Source: an uncultured Anaerolineaceae bacterium (GTDB lineage Bacteria; Chloroflexota; Anaerolineae; Anaerolineales; Anaerolineaceae). From it: 60,540 nucleotides of DNA. The stretch is taken from the NCBI GenBank assembly GCA_964584065.1, contig CAZOYK010000001.1, positions 1 through 60,540 on the forward strand. Direction: 5' to 3'. Below the pieces are notes generated by a model, which was not told where the DNA came from, made no database searches, and saw nothing but the letters and a program-made list of their open reading frames with translations. Both the position numbers and the translations under genes were made by a program. Positions 41,769-59,653 of this stretch are shown in pieces. Positions within the stretch are counted from its first letter, which is position 1; every line of letters begins with the position of its first letter.

Positions 41769-42782
41769 ATGGATTGGCAGAATAAAGTTGTCCTGGTAAC
41801 CGGCGGCACCGGATCTTTTGGAAAGAAATTTATTCGCCTGATGCTGAACGAATATCATCCCTCAAAAATCATCGTTTTCAGCCGGGATGAGTTAAAACAG
41901 CACGAAATGCGCACCACCGGCGGCTTCGACCACCCGTCAATCCGCTATTTTATTGGCGATGTGCGTGACCGCGAGCGGCTTTCGCGCGCCTTTTACGGCG
42001 TGGACATTGTGGTGCACACCGCCGCGCTAAAGCAGGTGCCTGCCTGCGAGTACAACCCTATGGAAGCCATCAAGACCAACATTCTCGGTTCCAGCAACGT
42101 GATTGAGGCGGCAATTGAGAACAATGTCAGCAAGGTGATGGCGCTTTCCACCGACAAAGCCGTCAATCCGGTCAACCTTTACGGCGCCACCAAGCTTGCC
42201 GCCGAGAAGTTGATGGTCCAGAGCAACGCCTACGCCGGCGGACGCAACACGCGCATCTCCTGCACGCGCTACGGCAACGTGGTAGGCTCGCGAGGATCGG
42301 TCGTGCCCCTGTTCCTCAAACAGCGCCCAACGGGCGTTTTGACCATCACAGATGACCGCATGACCCGCTTCTGGATCTCGCTGGAGCAGGGCGCGCGCTT
42401 TGTGATCCGCTGTATCGAACAGATGCAGGGCGGTGAACTCTTTGTGCCGAAGATCCCCAGCATGAAAATGACGGATCTTGCCAGGGCGATAGCCCCGGAA
42501 GCGGAAATCCGCATCATTGGCATCCGCCCGGGTGAGAAATTGCACGAATCGCTGATCTCCGAAGATGAAGCCCGCACCACGGTGGAGTTGGATGACATGT
42601 ACGTGGTCCAGCCAGCTGGCGAACCGCTCTGGTTTGGTCACGCCTGGACCGAAAAAGGGCGTGCCCTTCCCGAAGGTTTCACCTACACCAGCGCCAACAA
42701 CACCGAGTGGTTGGATGTGGATGGCATCAACGCCATTATCAAACCGATCGAAGCAGAACTGACCGGGGAAGTGAAGAAATAA
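41769..42782 (+). CDS. UDP-GlcNAc 4,6-dehydratase, PseB/FlaA1 type
   Basis: VLVTGGTGSFGKKF, FSRDELKQHEM, HTAALKQVPACEYNPMEAIKTNILGS, LSTDKAVNPVNLYGATK. Near-collinear with the PseB sequences I recall. Confidence 0.85.
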   Translation: MDWQNKVVLVTGGTGSFGKKFIRLMLNEYHPSKIIVFSRDELKQHEMRTTGGFDHPSIRYFIGDVRDRERLSRAFYGVDIVVHTAALKQVPACEYNPMEAIKTNILGSSNVIEAAIENNVSKVMALSTDKAVNPVNLYGATKLAAEKLMVQSNAYAGGRNTRISCTRYGNVVGSRGSVVPLFLKQRPTGVLTITDDRMTRFWISLEQGARFVIRCIEQMQGGELFVPKIPSMKMTDLARAIAPEAEIRIIGIRPGEKLHESLISEDEARTTVELDDMYVVQPAGEPLWFGHAWTEKGRALPEGFTYTSANNTEWLDVDGINAIIKPIEAELTGEVKK

Positions 42783-43702
42783 TGACCGGCCTGCTTGTCA
42801 CCGGCGCCAGCGGAATGCTGGGCGCAAACCTTGCTCTCCTTGCCCTGAAAAGGGGCTATGAGGTTCTAGGCTGGACGAACTCCCGCCTCCTGGTTGACGC
42901 GCCTTTTACCACCCACGCTGTTGACTTCAGCAACCCTCAAGACCTGGCGCAGGCCTTCGAAGCCGCCCAACCGGACGCGCTGATCAACTGTGCCGCGCAG
43001 GCAAACGTGGACGCGGCTGAAAAGCATCCCGAGCACGCGTTTCGCGTCAACTCTGAAGCTGCCGGAGAACTGGCGCTGATGGCCCGGAGTGCCAACGTAC
43101 CGATGATCCAACTTTCCACTGACGCCGTGTTTGATGGAACCAAGGGAAATTACACCGAAACCGACGCCCCCAACCCGCAGAACACTTATGCCAAAAGCAA
43201 GCTGGCTGGCGAACAAGCCGTGGCGGAAGCAAACCCCGAGGCTGCCATTGCCCGCGTAGTTTTCCACGGCTGGTCTCTGACCGGCACGCGCAGCCTGGCT
43301 GAATTTTTCTACAACAACCTTACAGCGGGCAAGCCGGTGACCGGCTTTACCGATATGTTTTTCTCGCCGCTCTACGCCGGGCACCTGGCGGAAGCACTTT
43401 TGGAAATGCTCGAAAAACGCCTGAGCGGCATCTATCACGTCTATTCGCCCGAAAGCCTGAGCAAGTATGATTTTGGCGTGCGCCTGGCGCACGAACTCGG
43501 ATTGGACGAAAACTTGATCAACCCAATTTCCGCCCTCAACTCCGACCTGCTCACCCGCCGTTCGCTCAACCTGAGCATGAACACCAACAAACTCCAGGCT
43601 GCCCTTGGCAAACCCTTACCCAACCAGGCCGAAGGCTTACGCGCCTTGCACGCCGACCTCGATTCTGGTCTGCGCCAAAAATTGCTTTCACTCAACTACT
43701 AA
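42782..43702 (+). CDS. RmlD-substrate-binding-domain NAD(P)H sugar reductase (dTDP-4-dehydrorhamnose-reductase-like)
   Basis: LLVTGASGMLG, YAKSKLAGE. TAATG overlap with the dehydratase. Start trimmed from ORF-track 42707. Confidence 0.75.
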   Translation: MTGLLVTGASGMLGANLALLALKRGYEVLGWTNSRLLVDAPFTTHAVDFSNPQDLAQAFEAAQPDALINCAAQANVDAAEKHPEHAFRVNSEAAGELALMARSANVPMIQLSTDAVFDGTKGNYTETDAPNPQNTYAKSKLAGEQAVAEANPEAAIARVVFHGWSLTGTRSLAEFFYNNLTAGKPVTGFTDMFFSPLYAGHLAEALLEMLEKRLSGIYHVYSPESLSKYDFGVRLAHELGLDENLINPISALNSDLLTRRSLNLSMNTNKLQAALGKPLPNQAEGLRALHADLDSGLRQKLLSLNY

Positions 43703-43713
43703 TCGGAGGACAA

Positions 43714-44778
43714 ATGGAACTCAAAATTGGTAACACCCTGATTGGAGACAATCACCCCACCTGGTTCATCGCCGACATCGCCGCCAATCACGACGGCAGC
43801 CTTGAGCGCGCTCTGCACCTCATTCATCTCGCTGCCGAATCCGGCGCGGATGCCGCCAAGTTCCAGAACTTCCGCGGGCCTGAAATCGTCTCGGATTATG
43901 GCTTCAGCCATATGAACGCGCAGGTCTCGCACCAGGCAAAATGGAAAAAATCTGTCACCCAGGTCTATGACGAAGCCTCGGTGCCTTTCGACTGGACCCC
44001 GATCCTCAAAGAAGAATGCGACAAAGTAGGCATCACTTACTTTTCATCCCCCTACGACTTTGACGCCGTCGACATGCTTGACCCCTTTGTGCCGGCTTAC
44101 AAAATTGGCTCAGGTGACATCACCTGGATTGAAGCCTGTTTGCACATGGCGCACAAGGGCAAACCCGTCCTGCTCGCCACGGGTGCCTCCACCATTGGCG
44201 ACGTGCAGCGGGCGGTTGACGCTATCCTGGCGGTTAACCCACAGCTGGTGCTGATGCAGTGCAACACCAACTACACTGCCGCTGATGGCAACTTCGACAA
44301 CATCCACCTCAACGTCCTCAAGGTTTACCGCCAGATGTGGCCGGACCTCATCCTGGGGCTCAGCGACCATACCCACGGGCATGCAACCGTTCTCGGAGCC
44401 GTGGCTCTTGGCGCGCGCGTGGTTGAGAAACACTTCACCGATGACAACCACCGCGAAGGTCCCGACCATGCCTTTGCCATGAACCCGACCAGTTGGGCCG
44501 AGATGGTTAATGCCACCCGCCAACTGGAACGCGCCATGGGCTCGGCCAACAAGACCATTGCGGAAAACGAGCATGATACGGTCGTGGTGCAGCGCCGCTG
44601 CCTGCGTGCCGCGCAGGATATCAAAGCTGGCCAGACGCTGACGCGTGAGATGATCGACGTTTTACGCCCTGCCACACCCGGCGCGATTATGCCTTATGAT
44701 ATCGAACTGGTTGTGGGGCACATCGCCCGCCAGGACATCCCCTCCGGGCAGGAACTGCGCTGGACGCAGCTTGGATAG
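43714..44778 (+). CDS. NeuB-family nonulosonic acid synthase with C-terminal SAF domain (PseI/LegI/NeuB-like)
   Basis: FIADIAANHDG, AAKFQ, and a SAF tail VLRPATPGAIMPYDIELVVGHIARQDIPSGQELRWTQL. GGAGG RBS. Confidence 0.85.
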   Translation: MELKIGNTLIGDNHPTWFIADIAANHDGSLERALHLIHLAAESGADAAKFQNFRGPEIVSDYGFSHMNAQVSHQAKWKKSVTQVYDEASVPFDWTPILKEECDKVGITYFSSPYDFDAVDMLDPFVPAYKIGSGDITWIEACLHMAHKGKPVLLATGASTIGDVQRAVDAILAVNPQLVLMQCNTNYTAADGNFDNIHLNVLKVYRQMWPDLILGLSDHTHGHATVLGAVALGARVVEKHFTDDNHREGPDHAFAMNPTSWAEMVNATRQLERAMGSANKTIAENEHDTVVVQRRCLRAAQDIKAGQTLTREMIDVLRPATPGAIMPYDIELVVGHIARQDIPSGQELRWTQLG

Positions 44779-44784
44779 GATCTG

Positions 44785-45900
44785 ATGCGCATTTTGTACT
44801 TCACGCGTGCCGATTCTGTGCACGATCAACGGTTTTTGACAGCCCTGGCTGAAAGCGGGCATGAGGGTTTCGTGCTGCGCCTCAACCCCGGGGAATACCC
44901 CACGCCCAGCGGTATTACAGCCCTTGAGTGGAGCGGCACCAAAAACCAGCTGACTGAAAACGACATTCCCCGCCTCACCAAGGAGCTTGGCGACGTGCTC
45001 AAGGCGGTTCAACCCGACCTGGTGCATGCCGGACCCTTGCAGGACCTGGCGTTCCTGGTCGCAAGAACCGGCTTCACACCGCTGTTGAGCATGAGTTGGG
45101 GTTTTGACCTGATGCACGACGTGCTGGTGAGTCCGGATTTTGCCGAAAAAGCACGCTTCGCCCTCGGGCATTCCGTGCGCCTGATCACAGATGCCCACTG
45201 CTCCGCCGCACAGGCAGTACACCTAGGCTTTGACTCCGAGAAAATTTGCCTCTTCCCCTGGGGGGTTGACCTGGCTCACTTCACGCCGGCTGCTGCCCGC
45301 GTCCGCGGCACGGTCTGGCGCGAACGGCATGGCTGGGGCGACAAACGCGTGCTGCTTTGCCTGCGCAGTTGGGAACCCAACTACGGCGTGGATGTCTTGC
45401 TCAGAGCCTTCGTTGAAGCAGCCCAAAAGGATGACAGCTTGCGCCTGATCCTGCTCGGAGACGGCAGCCAGCGTGAAGAATTGCTCTCCATCCTGGAAGA
45501 AGGAGAGGTGACCGACAAGGTCTTGCTGGGCGGTCGCGTACCCAACCAGGACCTGATCACGTTCTATGGAGCGGCTGACATCTACGTCACACCGAGCCAT
45601 GTGGATGGCTCTTCAGTCTCCCTGATGGAAGCCATGGCTTGTGGTCTGCCTTCCATCGCATCTAATATCCCTGCCAACGTCGAGTGGATTGCTGAAGGAC
45701 AAACCGGCTGGTTGTTCCCCGATGGAGATCATCACGCCCTGGCGGAGTTGCTCCTTCAAACCCCCTCGTTCAATTTAAGCTCAGTCGGAAAGCGTGCGCG
45801 CAAGCTTGCCGAAAAGCGCGCTGACTGGCGGCGAAATAAACAATTGCTGTTCCGCTGTTGGGAACAAGCCCTGAGCTCTTCAAAAGGAGGATCTCAATGA
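44785..45900 (+). CDS. GT4-family (GT-B) glycosyltransferase
   Basis: C-terminal VSLMEAMACGLPSIASNIPANVEWIAEGQTGWLF (E-x7-E region). Confidence 0.8.
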   Translation: MRILYFTRADSVHDQRFLTALAESGHEGFVLRLNPGEYPTPSGITALEWSGTKNQLTENDIPRLTKELGDVLKAVQPDLVHAGPLQDLAFLVARTGFTPLLSMSWGFDLMHDVLVSPDFAEKARFALGHSVRLITDAHCSAAQAVHLGFDSEKICLFPWGVDLAHFTPAAARVRGTVWRERHGWGDKRVLLCLRSWEPNYGVDVLLRAFVEAAQKDDSLRLILLGDGSQREELLSILEEGEVTDKVLLGGRVPNQDLITFYGAADIYVTPSHVDGSSVSLMEAMACGLPSIASNIPANVEWIAEGQTGWLFPDGDHHALAELLLQTPSFNLSSVGKRARKLAEKRADWRRNKQLLFRCWEQALSSSKGGSQ

Positions 45901-46538
45901 AAACCAGAATCCCACTAATTCTCCTGGTCCTGACAATTCTGACCATGGCTTGCAGTCTGCCTTCCTTAGGCAAAAAAGACACCCCCATTCCCCCAACGCC
46001 CACCCCCGAGTCTAATATGCAACTCTACTACGGCACCGGCATGCAGATCATGTTGCCAAATTCTTATGTCGCTGAAGATATCGACAGTGCTTTGCCGACG
46101 ATCATTGCCACCATCAAAGATTTTGTGGGAGGTGAATCCGGACCACTTTCAGGTCTGGTAGACAGCATCGAAGGCAATATCGGATGGTATGGCTACGATG
46201 GCGATAACGCCGCAATCTATCCCACCCGCTTGATCATCCTGCGCAACAAGACTTTTTCCAAGTTGCCAGTCAGCATGATCACCCTGGGGCTTGAGCAAGT
46301 CCTTGGTGGCGATTCTGCCCTGGTGGACAGCGACTCGATCAGACTTGGAGGTCGTGAGATAACCCGAATGAGCTATTCCAAGGATTCGTCTGCCTGGGTA
46401 GCTTACCTGTTCAAGGAAGCTGATTACCTTTGGATAACACTGTATATCACCACACCAGCCAATCTTGCTGCCGAAATGGACGACTATGAGCTCAGCGTAG
46501 GGTCCATCCAGATCGACGCCGTCCAGCCGACACCCTGA
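45897..46538 (+). CDS. Hypothetical secreted protein or lipoprotein
   Basis: AAGGAGG RBS and ATGA overlap. MKTRIPLILLVLTILTMAC signal with a possible lipobox Cys. Confidence 0.55.
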   Translation: MKTRIPLILLVLTILTMACSLPSLGKKDTPIPPTPTPESNMQLYYGTGMQIMLPNSYVAEDIDSALPTIIATIKDFVGGESGPLSGLVDSIEGNIGWYGYDGDNAAIYPTRLIILRNKTFSKLPVSMITLGLEQVLGGDSALVDSDSIRLGGREITRMSYSKDSSAWVAYLFKEADYLWITLYITTPANLAAEMDDYELSVGSIQIDAVQPTP

Positions 46539-46547
46539 CGGAGAATC

Positions 46548-47369
46548 GTGAGCGAACCGAAGACTGTTGCGATCATCCAAGCCCGCATGAGCTCCTCGCG
46601 CCTGCCAGGCAAAGTGCTGCGCATGGTTGGCAGCCAGCCAATGCTGGCTCGCGTTCTGGCTCGCGCCAGCCGCGCAAAGCTGGTGGATGCGATAATGGTG
46701 GCAACCACCACGGATCCCAGCGATGAACCGATCGCCGAATTCTGCGAAAGGGCAGGGATTGCCTGCTTCAGGGGCGATCTCTACGACGTGCTCGACCGCT
46801 ATTACCAGGCTGCAAAGCTTTCAGGCGCGAGCGTGGTGGTGAGGCTGACCGCGGATTGCCCGTTCATCGACCCGGAAGAGATCGATCGGACGATCGCGTA
46901 TTTCCACCTGACCTGCGCCGACTTCACCGCAAATCGCCTGCCACCGCCTTTCAGACGCACAACCGCCGTCGGCATGGATACCGAGGTGGTTTCGTTTGCC
47001 GCGCTTGAACGCGCCTGGAACGAAGCTGCAGAACCTTTTGAACGTGAACACGTCATGCCTTATCTGTACGACATGCCCGGTCGCTTCAAAATCAGCGTCG
47101 CCGATTGGGAGAAAGACCTCAGCCACTTGCGCTTCACGGTCGATACTCCCGCAGATCTAGAGGTTGCCAACCAGGTGTATTCTGAATTCAATGACCGTGA
47201 CGATTTCACCCTGCAGGAACTGCTGGATGCCAACGCGCGCCACGCTGAATGGCAAATGCAGGTGGCAGGCGTGAAGCACAAGGACCTTTTTGAAGTTGAC
47301 GAACGTGCGATCAAGCTGGACCAGGGGCAAACAGAAGAAAGAAATGAGCCTCCACATGACGGTGAATAA
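46548..47369 (+). CDS. SpsF/PseF-type cytidylyltransferase (CMP-nonulosonate synthetase candidate 1)
   Basis: VAIIQARMSSSRLPGKVL N-terminus. GTG start with GGAG RBS. 273 aa. Confidence 0.75.
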   Translation: MSEPKTVAIIQARMSSSRLPGKVLRMVGSQPMLARVLARASRAKLVDAIMVATTTDPSDEPIAEFCERAGIACFRGDLYDVLDRYYQAAKLSGASVVVRLTADCPFIDPEEIDRTIAYFHLTCADFTANRLPPPFRRTTAVGMDTEVVSFAALERAWNEAAEPFEREHVMPYLYDMPGRFKISVADWEKDLSHLRFTVDTPADLEVANQVYSEFNDRDDFTLQELLDANARHAEWQMQVAGVKHKDLFEVDERAIKLDQGQTEERNEPPHDGE

Positions 47370-51628: not shown

Positions 51629-52621
51629 ATGAAGTTCCTAATTGTTGGTTTAGGTTCGATTGGACGCAGGCATTTCAGTAACTTATTTTCACTGGGTAAA
51701 AAAGATCTACTCCTCTACCGGACTCATAAAGCTACATTGCCGGATATAGATTTTGGCGATATACCCTGCTTCTCTGACTTGGACGCTGCGTTAGCTTTAA
51801 AACCCGATGGCGTCATCGTCGCCAACCCTACCGCGCTGCATTTGGAAGTGGCAATGGCTGCTGCCAGGGCTGGCGCGGCACTCCTGATTGAAAAGCCAGT
51901 ATCCGACAGCCTTGTCGGGCTTGGTGACCTGCAATCTGCGCTAGCTCAAAGCGGGAAACCCGCCATGGTCGGCTTCCATTTCCGCTTTCACCCGGTACTG
52001 AACAAAATAAAGACCCTGCTGGAAAGTGGTCAGCTTGGCAAGCCTCTCTCGGCTCGCTCCCACTGGGGCGAGTATCTGCCTGGCTGGCACCCCTGGGAGG
52101 ACTATCGCCGCTCCTACGCAGCCCGCGCCGATCTTGGCGGAGGCGTGGTGAACACGCTTTCGCATCCTTTGGACTATTTGCGCTGGCTGCTGGGAGAAGT
52201 TGAAGGCGTCAGCGCCTGGATCGGCAAGCTGAGCGAACTTGAACTGGACGTGGAAGACCACGCCGATATCCTGTTGCGCTTTGCCAGCGGGGAGGTTGCC
52301 AGCATGCACCTGGACTATTATCAGCGCCCGCCCTCCCATACGCTTGAGATTACCTGCGAGAATGGCCGCATCTGCTGGGATAACGCCACTGGTGAGGCCC
52401 GGGTTTACCACGCTCAGAGCAGCACAACCGACTTGTTATTACCGCCGGAAGGTTTTGAGCGTAACCAAATGTTCCTGGATGAGATGGCAACCTTTGTGCG
52501 CCTGTGCCAGGGCGAAACCCTGCCGCACTGCACGCTCGCGGATGGCATCCGTGCGCAGGAGCTTGTGCTGGCAGTCAAGCAGTCCGCGGCACAACAAGGC
52601 GCGATGGTCAGGCTTGCCTGA
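51629..52621 (+). CDS. Gfo/Idh/MocA-family NAD(P) sugar oxidoreductase
   Basis: MKFLIVGLGSIGRRH Rossmann start and the LIEKPVS motif. Start trimmed from ORF-track 51467. Confidence 0.8.
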   Translation: MKFLIVGLGSIGRRHFSNLFSLGKKDLLLYRTHKATLPDIDFGDIPCFSDLDAALALKPDGVIVANPTALHLEVAMAAARAGAALLIEKPVSDSLVGLGDLQSALAQSGKPAMVGFHFRFHPVLNKIKTLLESGQLGKPLSARSHWGEYLPGWHPWEDYRRSYAARADLGGGVVNTLSHPLDYLRWLLGEVEGVSAWIGKLSELELDVEDHADILLRFASGEVASMHLDYYQRPPSHTLEITCENGRICWDNATGEARVYHAQSSTTDLLLPPEGFERNQMFLDEMATFVRLCQGETLPHCTLADGIRAQELVLAVKQSAAQQGAMVRLA

Positions 52622-52655
52622 TGGTAGAATTCAAACGTATCAACACGAGGAAACT

Positions 52656-53480
52656 ATGAGCAATATCCTTGAAAAATTTGACCTCCACGGCAGAACAGCC
52701 GTTGTGACTGGAGGAGCCGGCCTGTTGGGGCGGCAGTTTTCGTTAGCGCTTGCCCAGGCTGGCGCGAACGTCCTGGTGGCGGATCTGGCACGATCCGCTG
52801 CGGATGCCCACGCCCTGACCCTGCGCGAGCAAGGCTTGCGCGCTGAAGGCATTGGCGTGGACGTCACCGACCCCAATAGCACCCATGCGATGGTTCAAGC
52901 CGCACAGGAGATCTTTGGCAGCCTTGACGTTTTGGTCAACAGCGCCGCGCTCGATCCCAAGTTTGACCCTGCCAATGCCGGCTCGCAAGGTGCCAACGCT
53001 TTTGAGAGTTATTCGCTGGATTCCTGGCGCCTGGCGTTGGACGTCAATCTGACCGGGATGTTCCTCGCTTCGCAGGCTGCTGTGCAGCCAATGCTCGCGG
53101 CTGGCAAAGGCGTGATCATCAATATTTGTTCCACGTACGGGCTGGCTGGTCCGGATCAGCGCCTCTATGAGCGCCCCGATGGCACCCGGTCGTTCAAGCC
53201 CGCCTACTACTCCGTCACCAAAGCCGGCGTGCTCGGTTTCACGCGCTACCTGGCAGCCTATTATGCCGGCAAGAACATCCGCGTCAACGCCCTGACTCCC
53301 GGTGGGGTTTACAACGGGCACGACGAGATCTTCACGGCGCAGTATTCCGCCCGCACCATCCTGGGGCGCATGGCAAACATCGACGAAATGAGCGCCGCCA
53401 TGCTCTTCCTGTGCTCGGACGCCAGCAGCTACATGACCGGCAGCAACCTGGTGGTCGATGGAGGATGGACGGCATGGTAA
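52656..53480 (+). CDS. SDR-family oxidoreductase
   Basis: VTGGAGLLGRQ, YSVTKAG. GAGGA RBS. The ORF-track N-terminal extension overlaps the previous gene out of frame. Confidence 0.8.
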   Translation: MSNILEKFDLHGRTAVVTGGAGLLGRQFSLALAQAGANVLVADLARSAADAHALTLREQGLRAEGIGVDVTDPNSTHAMVQAAQEIFGSLDVLVNSAALDPKFDPANAGSQGANAFESYSLDSWRLALDVNLTGMFLASQAAVQPMLAAGKGVIINICSTYGLAGPDQRLYERPDGTRSFKPAYYSVTKAGVLGFTRYLAAYYAGKNIRVNALTPGGVYNGHDEIFTAQYSARTILGRMANIDEMSAAMLFLCSDASSYMTGSNLVVDGGWTAW

Positions 53481-54709
53481 ACAAACCCGAAGTGCTGGCA
53501 TTGATCCCAGCAAGGGGCGGTTCAAAGGGCATTCCGCGCAAAAACATCCGCGATTTTGCCGGCGCGCCGCTGATTGCCTACAGCATCGCCGCAGGGCTGC
53601 AGTCGCAGCATGTAACGCGTGTGATCGTCTCGACCGATGATGAAGAAATCGCAACGATTGCCCGCGAGTGGGGCGCTGAAACGCCTTTTTTGCGGCCTGC
53701 GGAGCTCGCCCAGGACGACACCACCGATCTGCCTGTTTTTCAACAGGCGCTTACCTGGTTAGCTGAACACGAAGCCTATACCCCCGATTTCGTGGTGCAA
53801 TTGCGCCCGACCTCGCCCGTGCGCCCGGTTGGTTTGATCGATGAAGCCATTGAGCTGATACTCACCAACCCGCAGGCGGATTGTGTGCGCGGCGTGGTGC
53901 CCAGCGGGCAAAACCCCTTCAAGATGTGGCAGATCGAGCCCGACTCACGCCAACTAAGACCTCTTCTGAATCTGCCAAACATCAAAGAGCCCTATAACGC
54001 TCCCCGCCAGGAATTACCGCAGACTTACTGGCAGACCGGGCATATCGATGTGATTCGCACCAATACCATCCTTGAAAAAGGCTCGCTAACAGGTGAGGTC
54101 ATTTTGCCTGTGCTGATTGACCCTCGCTACACGGTCGATATCGACACTCCCGCGGATATGGCGCGCTACGCCCAGCTGATGCAGAACCCCGAGCTTCATC
54201 CTGTGGATCCGTTAAAAAATCGGCGGTCGTTCCCGACACAACCTAAATTGCTGGTAATGGATTTTGACGGCGTCTTCACAGACGATACCGTCATCACAGA
54301 CCAGGACGGTCGCGAAAGCGTGATCTGCAGCCGCTCAGACGGCTTTGGCCTGGATATGCTGCGCCAGCAAGGCAAAGTGCACGCCATGATCCTCTCGCGG
54401 GAAGAAAACCCGGTGGTCGGCGCCAGGGCGCGCAAGCTGAAACTCGAAGTCTACCAGGGCGTGCAGGACAAAGCCCAGGCAATCCAGCAGCTGATTATAG
54501 AACGCAATTTGACCCAGTCAGAGGTCATTTATATTGGTAATGACCTGAATGACCTGCCTGTATTACCTTTCGTGGGATACTTTGTCTGTCCCCATGACGC
54601 GCACCCTGAAGTGATCCGGCGTGCGGACCTGGTGCTGAGCAATCCCGGTGGTCACGGCGCTATCCGTGAATTGATTGAAATTATCCTTAGGAGCGAAAAT
54701 GAATCGTGA
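53474..54709 (+). CDS. Bifunctional CMP-sugar synthetase (NeuA/KdsB fold) fused to a KdsC/YrbI-type HAD phosphatase (cytidylyltransferase candidate 2)
   Basis: N-terminus LALIPARGGSKGIPRKN (~230 aa). C-terminus LLVMDFDGVFTDD ... GNDLNDLP ... GGHGAIRE. GGAGG RBS 9 nt before ATG 53474. Confidence 0.8.
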   Translation: MVNKPEVLALIPARGGSKGIPRKNIRDFAGAPLIAYSIAAGLQSQHVTRVIVSTDDEEIATIAREWGAETPFLRPAELAQDDTTDLPVFQQALTWLAEHEAYTPDFVVQLRPTSPVRPVGLIDEAIELILTNPQADCVRGVVPSGQNPFKMWQIEPDSRQLRPLLNLPNIKEPYNAPRQELPQTYWQTGHIDVIRTNTILEKGSLTGEVILPVLIDPRYTVDIDTPADMARYAQLMQNPELHPVDPLKNRRSFPTQPKLLVMDFDGVFTDDTVITDQDGRESVICSRSDGFGLDMLRQQGKVHAMILSREENPVVGARARKLKLEVYQGVQDKAQAIQQLIIERNLTQSEVIYIGNDLNDLPVLPFVGYFVCPHDAHPEVIRRADLVLSNPGGHGAIRELIEIILRSENES

Positions 54710-55577
54710 AGTGAGTATTGGCAATCGCAAGGTCGGTGATGGACATCCCGCTTATATTATTGGCGAAATCGGTATCAACCACAACGGCGACATTGAAGTC
54801 GCGAAAAAGCTCATGGAAGTCGCTAAAAAGTCTGGCGTGGATGCGGTAAAATTCCAAAAACGTACACCCGAACTGTGCGTGCCGGAACATCAGCGCAGCC
54901 AGATGCGCGACACCCCCTGGGGCTACATCACTTACCTGGACTATCGCTACAAGGTAGAGTTTGACGAGGAAGATTATGCGGAGATCGATCGCTTTGCCAA
55001 GGAAATCGGCATCGATTGGTTTGCCTCCTCCTGGGATATCCCATCGCTGGAATTCATCGAGCGCTTCAATCCGCCTGCCCACAAACTCCCTTCCGCCCTG
55101 CTGACGGATCTGGAACTCTTGCGGGCTTACCGCGCAACCGGCAAACCGCTGATCGTCTCGACCGGCATGTCCACTCTCGACGAGATCAAGGCTGCCCTGG
55201 AGATCATTGGCGAAGAAAACCTGATCATCTGCCATACCACCAGCAGCTATCCCTGCCCACCAGAGGAGCTCAACCTGCGCATGATCCAAACCCTGCGCGA
55301 CATGACCACGATTTGCCCAATCGGATATTCCGGGCACGAGGTAGGCCTGGTGCCTTCAGCGGTCGCTGTGGCAATGGGAGCCTGCCTGGTGGAGCGCCAC
55401 ATCACGCTTGATCGTGCCATGTGGGGTTCAGATCAGAGCGCTTCGGTGGAGCCGCAAGGGCTCGCCAGCCTGGTGAAGTACATCCGCGTCACGGAGCGTT
55501 CTCTGGGAGATGGCGTCAAACGTGTTTACGACAGTGAGTTGTCTTCTTTGAGCAAGTTAAGGCGGTTTAGCCAGTAA
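54699..55577 (+). CDS. NeuB-family aldolase-type synthase lacking the SAF domain (sugar-phosphate + PEP condensing enzyme candidate)
   Basis: YIIGEIGINHNGD, DAVKFQKR, GYSGHE. Ends after 292 aa. AGGAG RBS and an 11-nt overlap with the upstream gene. Confidence 0.8.
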   Translation: MNREVSIGNRKVGDGHPAYIIGEIGINHNGDIEVAKKLMEVAKKSGVDAVKFQKRTPELCVPEHQRSQMRDTPWGYITYLDYRYKVEFDEEDYAEIDRFAKEIGIDWFASSWDIPSLEFIERFNPPAHKLPSALLTDLELLRAYRATGKPLIVSTGMSTLDEIKAALEIIGEENLIICHTTSSYPCPPEELNLRMIQTLRDMTTICPIGYSGHEVGLVPSAVAVAMGACLVERHITLDRAMWGSDQSASVEPQGLASLVKYIRVTERSLGDGVKRVYDSELSSLSKLRRFSQ

Positions 55578-55578
55578 G

Positions 55579-57201
55579 ATGAAAACCTCTCAGTTTATTA
55601 AGCGTGTAAGTCAGCGCGCGAAGCTTGAATTGGCACATCACGCCAACGATCGCCGTTTTGCAGCCCTTGCAAGCAAGGTGACTGCCAATGCGCCTGAGAA
55701 AACCGCAGCACCCGTTATTTTTTTTGATGCCTCCACGCGCCTGAGTGGAACCAGCCTGAACGCGGCTTTTGCCGCCCTGAGCGCATGGTCACTCGAACTG
55801 AAAGGTAAGCGTATAATCCACTTTGTGTGTCAGCAAGGCCTGGCGCCCTGTGTTTTTGGCACAAAGCGCAACGCTCTGCATCACCATCCTCCTTGCAGAG
55901 CATGTATGCGGCAGTCCGAAGCGCTTTTCGGGCAGTCAGAGGTGGCTTCTTTCGGGTATGACGCAGAAGCGCTCCCCCAGGGTTTGCTTGAGCCCCTTGA
56001 CCTTGACCAGCTAAGCCGTTTCACTTACGCAGACCTGCCCCTTGGCAAGCTTACACTGCCCTCCATGCGCTGGATCCTGCGCAGGCATCACTTGATCGAC
56101 GATGAGCTGACACGCTCCCTTTTCAAAAACTACATCCGCTCGGCTTATTCACTTGCATTGCAGTTTGAAGCGTTGGTTTTGGAGACGCAACCTCAAACGG
56201 TGGTGGTCTTCAATGGCATGCAGTACCCCGAAGCCACTGCCCGCTGGGTGGCGCGCCAGCACGGCATCCGCGTCATCAGCCACGAAGTTGGCATGGGTCC
56301 TTTTAGTGCCTACTTCACCGAAGGGGATGCCACCGCCTACGATCTGGACATCCCTGCGGACTTCCAATTGAACGAAGCCCAAAATCAACGCCTGGATGAC
56401 TATCTGAGCAAGCGCTTCAAAGGGGATTTCCACATGGCAGGGGTCAAGTTCTGGCCGGAAATGAGTGAGCTCACGCCGGACTTCCTGCAAAAAGCAGCCG
56501 GATTCAAGCAGATGGTGCCAGTCTTCACCAACGTGATCTTCGACACCAGCCAACCGCATGCAAACGTGGTCTTTGAAGACATGTTCACCTGGCTCGATTC
56601 CCTGCTGCTCACCGCCCGGTCACATCCTGAAACGTTGTTTGTCATCCGCGCCCATCCGGACGAAGCCCGCGTTGGCAAGGCCAGCGAAGAATCGGTGGCG
56701 GAGTGGGCGCAAGCACGCGGAGTGAGGGACATCCCCAACTTGCACTTCATCCCACCCCAGGAATATGTCAACTCATACGACCTGATCCGAATGGCGAAAT
56801 TTGTGCTGATCTACAACTCCACCATCGGGTTGGAAGCATCCATTCTTGGCGCGGCAGTGCTTTCGGCTGGCAAAGCGCGTTTCACTGCATCCGATGTGGT
56901 ATGGCTGCCGGAAACAAAAGCCGCCTACCAAACCAAACTCGACTCCCTGTTAGACTCAGAAACCGTTGAGCTGCCGTCCCATTTCAAGCGCAATGCCCGC
57001 CGCTTCCTCTACTGGCAGCTTTACCGCTCCTCACTCAGTTTCGAAGACTTTTTGAAACCGGATGGCGTCTGGGCGGGATACGTGACCCTAAAAGACTTCC
57101 CATGGCAGGCGCTGCTGCCCGAAAACTCAGCTACATTACAGACAGTCCATGACGGCATCCTGCACGGCGGGGATTTTATGCTCAAGGAGGACCCCCAATG
57201 A
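55579..57201 (+). CDS. KpsS/KpsC-like HP-motif GT-B transferase, paralog 2
   Basis: VIRAHPDE ... VLIYNSTIGLEASILGAAVLSAGKARF. Same architecture as 39224-40888. Confidence 0.6.
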   Translation: MKTSQFIKRVSQRAKLELAHHANDRRFAALASKVTANAPEKTAAPVIFFDASTRLSGTSLNAAFAALSAWSLELKGKRIIHFVCQQGLAPCVFGTKRNALHHHPPCRACMRQSEALFGQSEVASFGYDAEALPQGLLEPLDLDQLSRFTYADLPLGKLTLPSMRWILRRHHLIDDELTRSLFKNYIRSAYSLALQFEALVLETQPQTVVVFNGMQYPEATARWVARQHGIRVISHEVGMGPFSAYFTEGDATAYDLDIPADFQLNEAQNQRLDDYLSKRFKGDFHMAGVKFWPEMSELTPDFLQKAAGFKQMVPVFTNVIFDTSQPHANVVFEDMFTWLDSLLLTARSHPETLFVIRAHPDEARVGKASEESVAEWAQARGVRDIPNLHFIPPQEYVNSYDLIRMAKFVLIYNSTIGLEASILGAAVLSAGKARFTASDVVWLPETKAAYQTKLDSLLDSETVELPSHFKRNARRFLYWQLYRSSLSFEDFLKPDGVWAGYVTLKDFPWQALLPENSATLQTVHDGILHGGDFMLKEDPQ

Positions 57202-57869
57202 ACCTCGAAAAAATCGTTGCCTTGTTACCCATGCGCCACGATTCCAAGCGTGTGCCCGGGAAGAATTACCGCCTCATGTGCGGCAAACCACTCTACGCCC
57301 ACATCATCGAGACTCTCCTGAGCGTTGAGACGATCAGCCAGGTGGTGGTGGATACCGATTCGCCGCCTGTCATCGAAGGACTGGCGCGGGACTACCCGCA
57401 GGTGAAGGTGCTGCTGCGCCCGGAAGAACTGCGCGCCGATACCACCCCCACCAACGAGATCCTGGTTTACGACACTGCCCAGGTTCCCGCGGACCTCTAC
57501 CTGCAGACCCACAGCACCAATCCACTGCTCAAAGCCGAAACGATCCGACGCGCCATCGAGCAATTGCGCCAGGCTTACCCGGAGTACGATTCCCTTTTCG
57601 GCGTCACCCGCTTGCAAACCCGCCTGTGGGACGAACTTGGGCGTGCGGTAAACCACAACCCTGCGGTGCTTTTGCGCACGCAGGACCTTCCCCCAATCTA
57701 CGAAGAAAATTCCTGCATCTACCTTTTCACCCGCGATACCCTGATTTCGAGGCGCAACCGTCTGGGTGAGAGACCGATGATGTTCGAGATTGATGCCCGC
57801 GAAGCCACGGATATTGACGTGGAGCTGGATTTTGTCATCGCTGAAACGCTGATGGCTCACCAAAAATAA
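57198..57869 (+). CDS. Acylneuraminate-cytidylyltransferase-family enzyme (candidate 3)
   Basis: VALLPMRHDSKRVPGKNYR N-terminus. 223 aa. ATGA overlap. Confidence 0.75.
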   Translation: MNLEKIVALLPMRHDSKRVPGKNYRLMCGKPLYAHIIETLLSVETISQVVVDTDSPPVIEGLARDYPQVKVLLRPEELRADTTPTNEILVYDTAQVPADLYLQTHSTNPLLKAETIRRAIEQLRQAYPEYDSLFGVTRLQTRLWDELGRAVNHNPAVLLRTQDLPPIYEENSCIYLFTRDTLISRRNRLGERPMMFEIDAREATDIDVELDFVIAETLMAHQK

Positions 57870-57885
57870 TAATGAGGTTTTTCGT

Positions 57886-58866
57886 ATGAAGAACGTATTA
57901 GTCTCTGCCCCATACATGCTGCCTTTCATGGATCGGTTTGGTCCTGTCCTGGATCATTTTGGCATCCACCCCATTATCCCGGAAGTGCATGAACGGCTTG
58001 AAGCGGAGGAAATTCTGCGCTATGCCGGTCAGTTCGAGGGCGCCATCTGCGGCGACGACCGCTACAACGCCGATGTCATCAAAGCCTGTCTGCCCGCTCT
58101 TAAAGTGATTTCCAAGTGGGGCACCGGCATTGACTCGATCGACAAAGTAGCTGCTGAAGCCATGGGCGTGCGCGTCATGAACACCCCGAACGCCTTCACC
58201 GTGCCTGTGTCTGAAAGCGTTATGAACAGCATGCTCAATTTCGCCCGCCTTCAGCCCTGGATGGACCACGCTATGAAAAATGGGGTTTGGAACAAAATTC
58301 CCGGGCATACCCTGAGCGAATCAACCCTTGGCGTGGTTGGCGTAGGCAACTGCGGAAAAGCCGTCCTTAGAAGGGCGCGCACCTTTGGCATGAAGTTGCT
58401 GGGGAACGACATCGTTGAGATCGCGCCCGACTTCCTGGTGGAAAACGGCGTGGAGATGACCACCCTCGAGGATCTGCTGCAGCGCGCGGATTACATCAGC
58501 CTCAACACCACCCTGACACCCACTGCCTATCATCTGATCAATGCGGAAACCCTGCGCCTGGTCAAACCCAACGCGGTGCTGATCAACACCTCGCGCGGAC
58601 CAGTGGTGCATGAGGTCGCGCTGATTGAAGCCCTGCAGGATGGACGCCTGCGAGGAGCGGCGCTGGATGTGTTTGAGCAGGAACCTCTGCCGCTGGACAG
58701 CCCGCTGCTGCAGATGGATAACGTCATGCTCTCGCCCCACAACACCAACAGCAGCCCATTTTATTGGGAACGCGTACACTGGAACACCCTGCGTAATTTG
58801 CTGATCGGGCTGGATATTCCGGTGGGCGATATCGCCAGCCTCAAAGCGCTCGAAAAAGGCGCATAA
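57886..58866 (+). CDS. D-isomer-specific 2-hydroxyacid dehydrogenase family protein
   Basis: GVVGVGNCGKAV NAD motif, LINTSRGPVV, DVFEQEPLP, SPHNT. Confidence 0.8.
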   Translation: MKNVLVSAPYMLPFMDRFGPVLDHFGIHPIIPEVHERLEAEEILRYAGQFEGAICGDDRYNADVIKACLPALKVISKWGTGIDSIDKVAAEAMGVRVMNTPNAFTVPVSESVMNSMLNFARLQPWMDHAMKNGVWNKIPGHTLSESTLGVVGVGNCGKAVLRRARTFGMKLLGNDIVEIAPDFLVENGVEMTTLEDLLQRADYISLNTTLTPTAYHLINAETLRLVKPNAVLINTSRGPVVHEVALIEALQDGRLRGAALDVFEQEPLPLDSPLLQMDNVMLSPHNTNSSPFYWERVHWNTLRNLLIGLDIPVGDIASLKALEKGA

Positions 58867-58888
58867 TTCTGACAGAAGAGGACTTACC

Positions 58889-59653
58889 ATGAGCGATTCA
58901 AAGAAAACCATCCTGATCACCGGCGCCGCTGGCGGCGTGGGGCGGGCGACCGTGAAGCTCTTCCACGAACGCGGCTTCCGGGTGATTGGCGTTGACCGAC
59001 AGAGCGTTTACCCGGAATTCCCTGAAGATGGTCTGTTCATCCAGGCAGACATCTCCATTCCCGAGAACCTTGAGAAGATCTTCGTCCAAGCGACCCAATT
59101 CACACCCACTCTGGACGTGCTGGTGAACAATGCCGGCTTCCAGGTGACCAAACCCCTGGTTGAGACGACGGTGGAAGAGTGGGATATGGTGATGGCTTCG
59201 AACCTGCGCTCAGTCTTCCTGGGTGCCAAGCTGGCTTACCCGCTGCTAAAAGCGGAAGGCGGCGGCGCAATCGTGAACGTTTCATCGGTGCATGCCGTGG
59301 CTACCAGCGCTAACATTGCGGCTTATGCTGCCAGCAAAGGCGGACTGCTCGCATTGACCCGAGCCATGGCGATCGAATTCGCGCCGGATAACATCCGCGT
59401 GAACGCCGTGCTGCCCGGGGCAGTCGACACGCCCATGTTGCGTGCCGGTTTCCACCGCGGACGAGATGACGAGGCGTCCGAAGAGAGCCAGCTGGCAGCC
59501 CTGGCAGCCAAAACCGTCAACGGACGCGTAGCGCTGCCCGAAGAAATCGCATCCGTGATCTACTTCCTGGCAGATGCAACCCAGTCCAGCTTTATCACCG
59601 GGCAGGGCTTGCTGGCTGATGGCGGAGCCACCTGCCGCTTGAGCACGGAGTGA
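58889..59653 (+). CDS. SDR-family oxidoreductase
   Basis: ITGAAGGVGRA, NNAG, YAASKGG. Confidence 0.8.
   Translation: MSDSKKTILITGAAGGVGRATVKLFHERGFRVIGVDRQSVYPEFPEDGLFIQADISIPENLEKIFVQATQFTPTLDVLVNNAGFQVTKPLVETTVEEWDMVMASNLRSVFLGAKLAYPLLKAEGGGAIVNVSSVHAVATSANIAAYAASKGGLLALTRAMAIEFAPDNIRVNAVLPGAVDTPMLRAGFHRGRDDEASEESQLAALAAKTVNGRVALPEEIASVIYFLADATQSSFITGQGLLADGGATCRLSTE

Follow-up and report, generated by a model that had tools for sequence, protein, structure and literature searches.

A CMP-nonulosonate synthetase fused to a Kdn-9-phosphate-phosphatase-type HAD domain beside a SAF-less NeuB in an Anaerolineaceae bacterium: a likely module for Kdn-type sugar synthesis via phosphorylated intermediates

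Introduction

Why would an enzyme that activates a sugar acid with cytidine monophosphate (CMP) be joined in one chain to a phosphatase, and why is this chain encoded next to a NeuB-family synthase? The question is raised by a 60,540-nucleotide stretch of DNA (the window) from an uncultured Anaerolineaceae bacterium (contig CAZOYK010000001.1, positions 1 to 60,540, assembly GCA_964584065.1). Its plus strand, to which all window coordinates below refer, encodes a 411-amino acid (aa) bifunctional fusion of a CMP-nonulosonate synthetase and a HAD phosphatase (53474..54709), followed by a 292-aa, SAF-less synthase of the NeuB family (54699..55577). Our sequence analysis makes it likely that the two proteins together form a three-activity module, which produces a 3-deoxy-nonulosonic acid of the ketodeoxynonulosonic acid (Kdn) type via a phosphate route.

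Such a route, relying on a synthase, a phosphatase and a CMP-synthetase, is established for Bacteroides thetaiotaomicron, a haptophyte alga and animals (PMC6200933). In B. thetaiotaomicron, the Kdn pathway comprises the Kdn-9-phosphate synthase BT1714, the Kdn-9-phosphate phosphatase BT1713 and a CMP-Kdn synthetase (Wang et al. 2008 and Lu et al. 2009, as described in PMC6200933).

Results

The reading frame at 53474..54709 runs through 411 aa without stop or frameshift. A preliminary description of the window had joined a CMP-sugar synthetase to a HAD domain of the KdsC/YrbI type in this protein, and Pfam and NCBIfam searches gave the same domain boundaries. Residues 1 to ~239 (53474..54190) form an N-terminal cytidylyltransferase domain (PF02348, TIGR03584) with the motifs PARGGSKGIPRKN, QLRPTSP and DIDT, in which Pfam located CTP_transf_3 at residues 9-144 and NCBIfam (TIGR03584) PseF-like similarity across residues 8-231. 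It is followed by an interdomain linker (residues 240-256; 54191..54241) with a VDPL motif conserved in the alignment of fusions, and by a capless (C0) HAD phosphatase domain at the C-terminus (residues 257-411; 54242..54706). The KdsC/YrbI model TIGR01670 of NCBIfam matched residues 258-409 with 107.2 bits at a cut-off of 106.95, the KdsC/YrbI-type part as a whole spanning residues 257-410. The protein has the layout of the two-domain (long-form) CMP-sialic acid synthetases, i.e. an N-terminal CTP_transf_3 and a C-terminal KdsC-like HAD domain in a single chain.

The AlphaFold2 model of the fusion reached a mean pLDDT (predicted local distance difference test) of 92.8. In Foldseek comparisons, its N-terminal half superposed on synthetases of CMP-N-acetylneuraminic acid (CMP-Neu5Ac), CMP-pseudaminic acid (CMP-Pse) and CMP-Kdn with target-normalised TM (template modelling) scores of 0.86-0.92, and its C-terminal half on the Streptomyces avermitilis HAD protein 3mmz, on KdsC structures and on the C-terminal domain of mouse CMP-sialic acid synthetase (CMAS). 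By sequence, the closest PDB entries to the N-terminal domain are the A. caviae NeuA/CMP-Pse synthetase (9ftb) and the V. cholerae CMP-Neu5Ac synthetase (6ifd). The nearest solved structure to the HAD domain is 3mmz (E 1e-35), which was deposited only as a putative hydrolase.

A single reading frame of this kind could arise when an assembly error or a frameshift joins two genes. We found nothing in favour of such an artefact, judge its probability to be practically nil and rejected this possibility, which the preliminary description had named as one that would refute its reading: hundreds of independent assemblies yield the same 403-420-aa protein, the linker is conserved and the model is confident across the domain junction. 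The best 120 homologues are mostly 403-420 aa long and contain both domains; many are named Anaerolineaceae proteins. Out of 1.8 billion cluster representatives searched, 30,497 matched, and when domain order was checked in the best 150 (clusters at 50% identity), the synthetase preceded the HAD domain in 68 and followed it in 4. The latter (P0259, P0272, P0278 and P0306) carry the HAD domain N-terminally and the cytidylyltransferase C-terminally. A further observation concerns P0248, P0270 and P0349, in which the PARGGSKG nucleotide-binding motif of the synthetase half is degenerate and the HAD catalytic residues are intact.

The kind of phosphatase was assessed by HMMER alignment of the HAD domain with BT1713 (3e81). 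The sequences DFDGVFTDD and GNDLNDLP are present as described earlier. The former supplies the DxD nucleophile of motif I (D263/D265, aligned with D10/D12 of BT1713), while motif IV comprises G355-N356-D357 and D360. S308 aligned with T54 (motif II), K333 with Lys80 (motif III), E310 and K321 with the specificity markers Glu56 and Lys67, and R318 with Arg64, a sugar-binding residue. Lu et al. (2009; JBC 284:1224) reportedly gave Glu56 and Lys67 as the markers separating Kdn-9-phosphate phosphatases from phosphatases acting on the 8-phosphate of ketodeoxyoctulosonic acid (Kdo). When the marker positions were tabulated in 47 HAD domains, Glu/Arg/Lys were present in all 30 fused HADs and in the free-standing BT1713-type HADs of nonulosonate loci. 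In three KdsC proteins of the proteobacterial type (E. coli, Pirellulales, Desulfosudaceae), Arg (T-G-R) stands in place of the Glu, and Glu or Thr in place of the Lys. Three Bacteroidota genomes encode second HADs, presumed Kdo-8-phosphate phosphatases, which carry Gly or Gln instead of the Glu. In a tree that is unrooted and was midpoint-rooted for drawing only, the fused HADs are split (support 100/99) from a group holding both KdsC and the free Kdn-9-phosphate-type HADs. The marginal TIGR01670 score would suit an ordinary Kdo-8-phosphate phosphatase (KdsC) and a Kdo pathway for these genes. However, Glu310 occupies the position of the KdsC marker Arg (Arg78 in E. coli KdsC numbering), and the partner gene belongs to the NeuB family rather than being KdsA.

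Conservation within the HAD domain was followed in 27 fusions with identities down to 33%. D263, D265, E310, K321, K333, D357 and D360 are invariant in this set, the DxD nucleophile of the preliminary description included, and conservation of E310, R318 and K321 is complete or no lower than 90%. The synthetase half retains only 2 invariant residues in the same proteins and is far more variable. Strict retention of HAD residues next to a variable synthetase half argues, as far as sequence can, for a working phosphatase.

The downstream protein (54699..55577) is a NeuB-family TIM barrel (PF03102, 246.7 bits), which is predicted to condense a sugar 6-phosphate with phosphoenolpyruvate (PEP). Its likely start is ATG 54699, preceded by AGGAG, rather than TTG 54675. 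Pfam detected no SAF domain in the 292 aa, in agreement with the preliminary description, but the accompanying claim of a truncation did not hold: the best 120 homologues are all 289-293 aa long and match PF03102 alone, and therefore the absence of SAF is native. The tail past the barrel measures only ~12 residues, as in PDB 6ncs, a solved 290-aa example. Metal-binding His residues are kept in GYSGHE and ERHIT (H213, H234), and the PEP-binding Lys and Glu residues K51, K129 and E232 are conserved. In the NeuB tree, SAF-less enzymes cluster (94/84) apart from SAF-containing ones; for NeuBs other than that of the window, SAF absence was judged by length of the C-terminal tail, a BLAST probe for SAF being insensitive, as it missed the Pfam-detected SAF in locus L043. 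Human Neu5Ac-9-phosphate synthase carries a SAF domain, and therefore SAF absence by itself is not diagnostic of a phosphate route. A KdsC-family HAD gene was present within 7 kb of 35/37 SAF-less NeuB genes sampled. Together with the Kdn-9-phosphate phosphatase markers, this linkage lends sequence support to the route through phosphorylated intermediates that had been proposed for the window.

One residue of the synthase deserves separate mention. Arg288 (55560-55562) is Arg in 30/30 members of its own NeuB clade and Lys in 7/7 members of the Bacteroidota-type clade, while none of the 8 SAF-containing NeuBs used for comparison, a small control set, has a basic residue there. It is a candidate phosphate-binding residue specific to the SAF-less forms.

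The gene arrangement fits a translationally coupled operon: the fusion ATG overlaps the stop codon of an upstream SDR gene by 7 nucleotides (nt), the NeuB start overlaps the fusion TGA by 11 nt, and a gene for a 540-aa protein begins 1 nt past the NeuB stop. To what extent fusion and NeuB stay together elsewhere was determined by scanning prokaryote genomes, one for each species, with an 11-sequence fusion alignment as query, which returned 80 loci. Full-length fusions were contained in 54 of these, 35 from Chloroflexota and 19 from other groups (Planctomycetota, Acidobacteriota, Gemmatimonadota, Thermodesulfobacteriota, Cyanobacteriota, Actinomycetota, Kiritimatiellota, Pseudomonadota and two Methanobacteriota archaea), i.e. 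about ten phyla; Brachyspira carries the fusion as well. A SAF-less NeuB was present in 48/54 fusion loci (32/35 in Chloroflexota, 16/19 elsewhere), and loci without linked NeuB mostly lie at contig ends. The linked NeuBs are 288-301 aa long, 52-84% identical to the window NeuB and usually encoded directly downstream of the fusion. Outside Chloroflexota, only the pair of fusion and NeuB is conserved; its carriers include the Actinomycetota Microbacterium, Demequinaceae and Streptosporangium. In Streptosporangium canum and S. minutum, synthetase, HAD domain and SAF-less NeuB even constitute one 685-aa open reading frame (L086:6995-9052, L087:6995-9052).

The same activities are also found split. 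A free HAD adjoins a NeuB 62% identical to that of the window in a Lewinellaceae locus. In the Bacteroidota loci L061 and L064, free HADs of 161-163 aa score 185.6 and 182.2 bits with the Kdn-9-phosphate phosphatase equivalog NF058599, above its cut-off of 180. Loci whose HAD reaches this cut-off served as stand-ins for BT1713/BT1714 in our comparisons; the Bacteroidota BT1713 equivalogs have a SAF-less NeuB of 290 aa and a synthetase of 240 aa as neighbours. In four further loci (L063:10320-11393, L065, L070 and L071), a HAD-SIS (phosphosugar isomerase) fusion adjoins a NeuB of the window clade. These fusions combine a KdsC-type HAD with a SIS_2 (GmhA-like) domain, and a separate cytidylyltransferase is encoded nearby; their HADs have Ile or Leu for Arg318 and GDA or GDG as motif IV.

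Other domain combinations were observed in the scanned loci. A Desulfosudaceae protein of 696 aa consists of synthetase, HAD and S-adenosylmethionine-dependent methyltransferase domains (L062:6995-9085). In Anaerolineales, NeuB-SAF-AP_endonuc_2 fusions (AP_endonuc_2 being a xylose-isomerase-like TIM barrel) of ~630-640 aa (L043:7762-9690, L047, L048, L054) adjoin a synthetase 53-62% identical to the N-terminal domain of the window fusion, and resemble the Leptospira NeuB fusion of PMC3438082. In two Chloroflexota loci (L024:2969-3715, L031:6258-7004), the fusion is directly preceded by an additional, free-standing paralogue of the synthetase (248 aa, 64% identical); L024 has a second SAF-less NeuB as well, and L031 a NeuB that is more distant and interrupted by the locus end.

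The host genome, a 2.24-Mb metagenome-assembled genome of an Anaerolineaceae bacterium, was then considered for the source of the sugar phosphate. The fusion contains its only KdsC-type HAD, and both of its NeuB genes lie inside the window. In this 85% complete genome, neither a Kdo-8-phosphate synthase (KdsA) nor, as source of N-acetylmannosamine (ManNAc) or its 6-phosphate, Epimerase_2 or NanE was found. The Pirellulales and Desulfosudaceae genomes, diderm carriers of the fusion, hold a separate true KdsC beside it. Since the 85% complete genome yielded neither KdsA nor a ManNAc source and diderms keep a separate KdsC, a Kdo role is excluded and Neu5Ac disfavoured, leaving a neutral hexose 6-phosphate. 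We therefore regard a Kdo pathway, already at odds with the Glu marker and the NeuB-family partner, as very improbable and rejected it. Mannose 6-phosphate, which would give Kdn, is the obvious candidate for the condensed hexose 6-phosphate. The absence of Epimerase_2 and NanE bears also on a second pathway of the window, with a SAF-containing NeuB, at 41769..47369.

Several observations weigh against a Kdn-type module with a phosphate intermediate. Class I mannose-6-phosphate isomerase (TIGR00218) was not found in the host and 20 relatives (21 Anaerolineales genomes in all, of which 12 have a completeness of at least 90%). Searches for a mannose 6-phosphate source with PF01238, PF01050 and TIGR00218 were negative or weak, other isomerase types lying outside these profiles. 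The HAD domain scores 101.7 bits with NF058599 and 112.9 bits with the KdsC equivalog NF007019 (cut-off 208), and by this measure falls short of an equivalog both of BT1713 and of KdsC. Its motif IV reads GND, i.e. Asn356 (54539-54541) replaces an Asp (D125 of E. coli KdsC, D103 of BT1713) that serves as Mg2+ ligand in both enzymes; among 71 fusion cluster representatives, motif IV is GND in 61, GDD in 7 and neither in 3. Identity between the window NeuB and those SAF-less NeuBs of Bacteroidota that are paired with BT1713 equivalogs amounts to only 34-37%. Finally, the C-terminal domain of mouse CMAS shares the fold and has no phosphatase activity (PMC8636478).

The mouse enzyme suggests that the HAD domain of the fusion might be a non-catalytic oligomerisation platform, in which case NeuB would use free sugar or another phosphatase would act. 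The vertebrate enzyme has the same two-domain layout, the C-terminal domain of the model superposes on that of mouse CMAS (3ewi) with a TM score of 0.91, and Asn takes the place of the Mg2+-binding Asp in motif IV. On the other hand, a scaffold would need none of the remaining catalytic and sugar-binding residues, which are better kept than the synthetase half; the GND form also occurs in the free-standing 3mmz; and split loci have free-standing HADs in place of the fused domain. In addition, Oschlies et al. reportedly put the inactivity of the mouse domain down to a vertebrate-specific segment blocking the active site (2009). A purely structural role thus appears unlikely to us.

A phosphate route could also lead from ManNAc-6-phosphate to Neu5Ac or another N-acylated sialic acid, as in animals. 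BT1713-type phosphatases also accept Neu5Ac-9-phosphate, CMP-Neu5Ac synthetases are among the best sequence matches of the synthetase domain, and a mannose-6-phosphate isomerase was not found with the profiles named above. Yet the 85% complete host genome yielded no member of the UDP-N-acetylglucosamine 2-epimerase family and no NanE, and the conserved neighbours include no kinase, aminotransferase or acetyltransferase. Moreover, the module is present in Actinomycetota, a group in which Streptomyces has walls with Kdn-containing teichulosonic acid (PMC11481543) and a neuA/neuB cluster (PMC3479208). We consider a Neu5Ac-type product improbable and retain a Kdn-type sugar as the favoured one.

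In Chloroflexota, the module has further conserved company. A Gfo/Idh/MocA oxidoreductase (51629..52621; 330 aa from MKFLIVG) and the SDR oxidoreductase (52656..53480; 274 aa from MSNILEK), both assigned by profile matches, precede the fusion in the window; they are kept in 21/35 and 33/35 Chloroflexota fusion loci, respectively. PDB matches of the Gfo/Idh/MocA protein are generic sugar oxidoreductases. The pair probably modifies the sugar, for instance, by analogy with known systems, through oxidation and re-reduction of one hydroxyl. Adjacent genes for Gfo/Idh/MocA, SDR and CMP-nonulosonate synthetase proteins (51629..54709) reproduce the layout of the Acinetobacter baumannii ElaABC triad, for which C8 epimerisation of CMP-legionaminic acid via oxidation and re-reduction has been proposed (PMC13656337). 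The same three enzyme classes are encoded in one overlapping operon, a likeness at the level of enzyme class; the nonulosonate predicted for the window is not a 5,7-diamino sugar. With a triad as in ElaABC, the Chloroflexota product may be a Kdn epimer. Whether the pair epimerises a hydroxyl of the CMP-sugar or makes an unusual hexose 6-phosphate in a lineage that yielded no class I mannose-6-phosphate isomerase, an undescribed Kdn stereoisomer would be displayed either way; we put this forward as a tentative idea.

The 540-aa protein (55579..57201), a putative CMP-sugar transferase with weak matches to BFO_1060 and to surface-polysaccharide families, is kept in 27/35 Chloroflexota fusion loci. 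At positions 57198-59653 of the window, a third cytidylyltransferase of 223 aa is followed by genes for a D-2-hydroxyacid dehydrogenase and an SDR protein; the dehydrogenase recurs in 14/35 Chloroflexota fusion loci with a median identity of 65%.

Discussion

From domain make-up, residue conservation, gene linkage and the triple fusion, we infer the activities, substrate and product of the module as follows. From PEP and a hexose 6-phosphate, for which mannose 6-phosphate is the most likely choice, the SAF-less NeuB would form a nonulosonate 9-phosphate. Its 9-phosphate would then be stripped off by the HAD domain at the C-terminus of the fusion, with Asp263 as nucleophile, and the sugar would be contacted by Glu310 as well as by Arg318 and Lys321 of the neighbouring subunit. 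Subsequently, the N-terminal domain would couple the free sugar to CMP, and the downstream 540-aa protein would probably move it onto a surface glycan. In Chloroflexota, the Gfo/Idh/MocA and SDR proteins probably modify the sugar, and the final product is possibly the Kdn epimer considered above.

A close known counterpart is the Kdn pathway of B. thetaiotaomicron, with which the module shares the three activities in the same order, a HAD of the same C0 subfamily ('8KDOP') and the markers Glu56/Arg64/Lys67; loci with BT1713-equivalog HADs likewise have a SAF-less NeuB of ~290 aa. In contrast to that pathway, the phosphatase of the window is fused to the synthetase, stays below the BT1713 equivalog cut-off, branches apart from the free HADs in the tree and shows GND rather than GDD as motif IV; the NeuB differs to the extent given above.

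Vertebrate CMAS in its long form provides the second counterpart, its N-terminal synthetase likewise being followed by a KdsC-like HAD domain at the C-terminus; our model matches 1qwj with its N-terminal and 3ewi with its C-terminal domain. The C-terminal domain of two-domain CMP-sialic acid synthetases occurs in vertebrates as well as certain kinds of bacteria (PMC8636478). The difference lies in the HAD domain, which tetramerises and is inactive in mouse (PMC8636478), whereas its residues are strictly conserved in the fusions. Channelling may be one reason for the fusion; alternatively, by analogy with mouse CMAS, a HAD tetramer may organise the synthetase.

A third comparison, made by description only, concerns SCO4879-SCO4881 of Streptomyces coelicolor (NeuE-like, NeuA, NeuB), a PhoP-activated cluster with an implied role in making a cell-wall polymer (PMC3479208). 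It likewise contains an actinomycete neuA/neuB pair, and other Actinomycetota hold the fusion together with a SAF-less NeuB.

The module represents a common, ordinary and already described design, and its architecture was known before, a point that the preliminary description did not make. Daughtry et al. reportedly noted in 2013 (Biochemistry 52:5372) that orthologues of the Kdn-9-phosphate phosphatase are single-domain or fused with the nucleotidyltransferase of the pathway; the fused proteins have exactly the architecture of the window fusion. A biochemical characterisation of a fused bacterial enzyme was not found in the literature searched. The known workings of such pathways are unchanged by our findings.

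Their practical value lies in annotation. Databases routinely name these proteins "acylneuraminate cytidylyltransferase" and "N-acetylneuraminate synthase", whereas the evidence points to a bifunctional Kdn-9-phosphate-type phosphatase/CMP-Kdn-type synthetase and to a synthase using a sugar 6-phosphate. The Glu/Lys markers offer a simple rule to separate this phosphatase from KdsC. Anaerolineae, a group abundant in sludge and sediments, carry the module very commonly, and it extends to many other phyla and to methanogen-related archaea. Given this wide distribution, Kdn-type sugars may be a widespread surface component.

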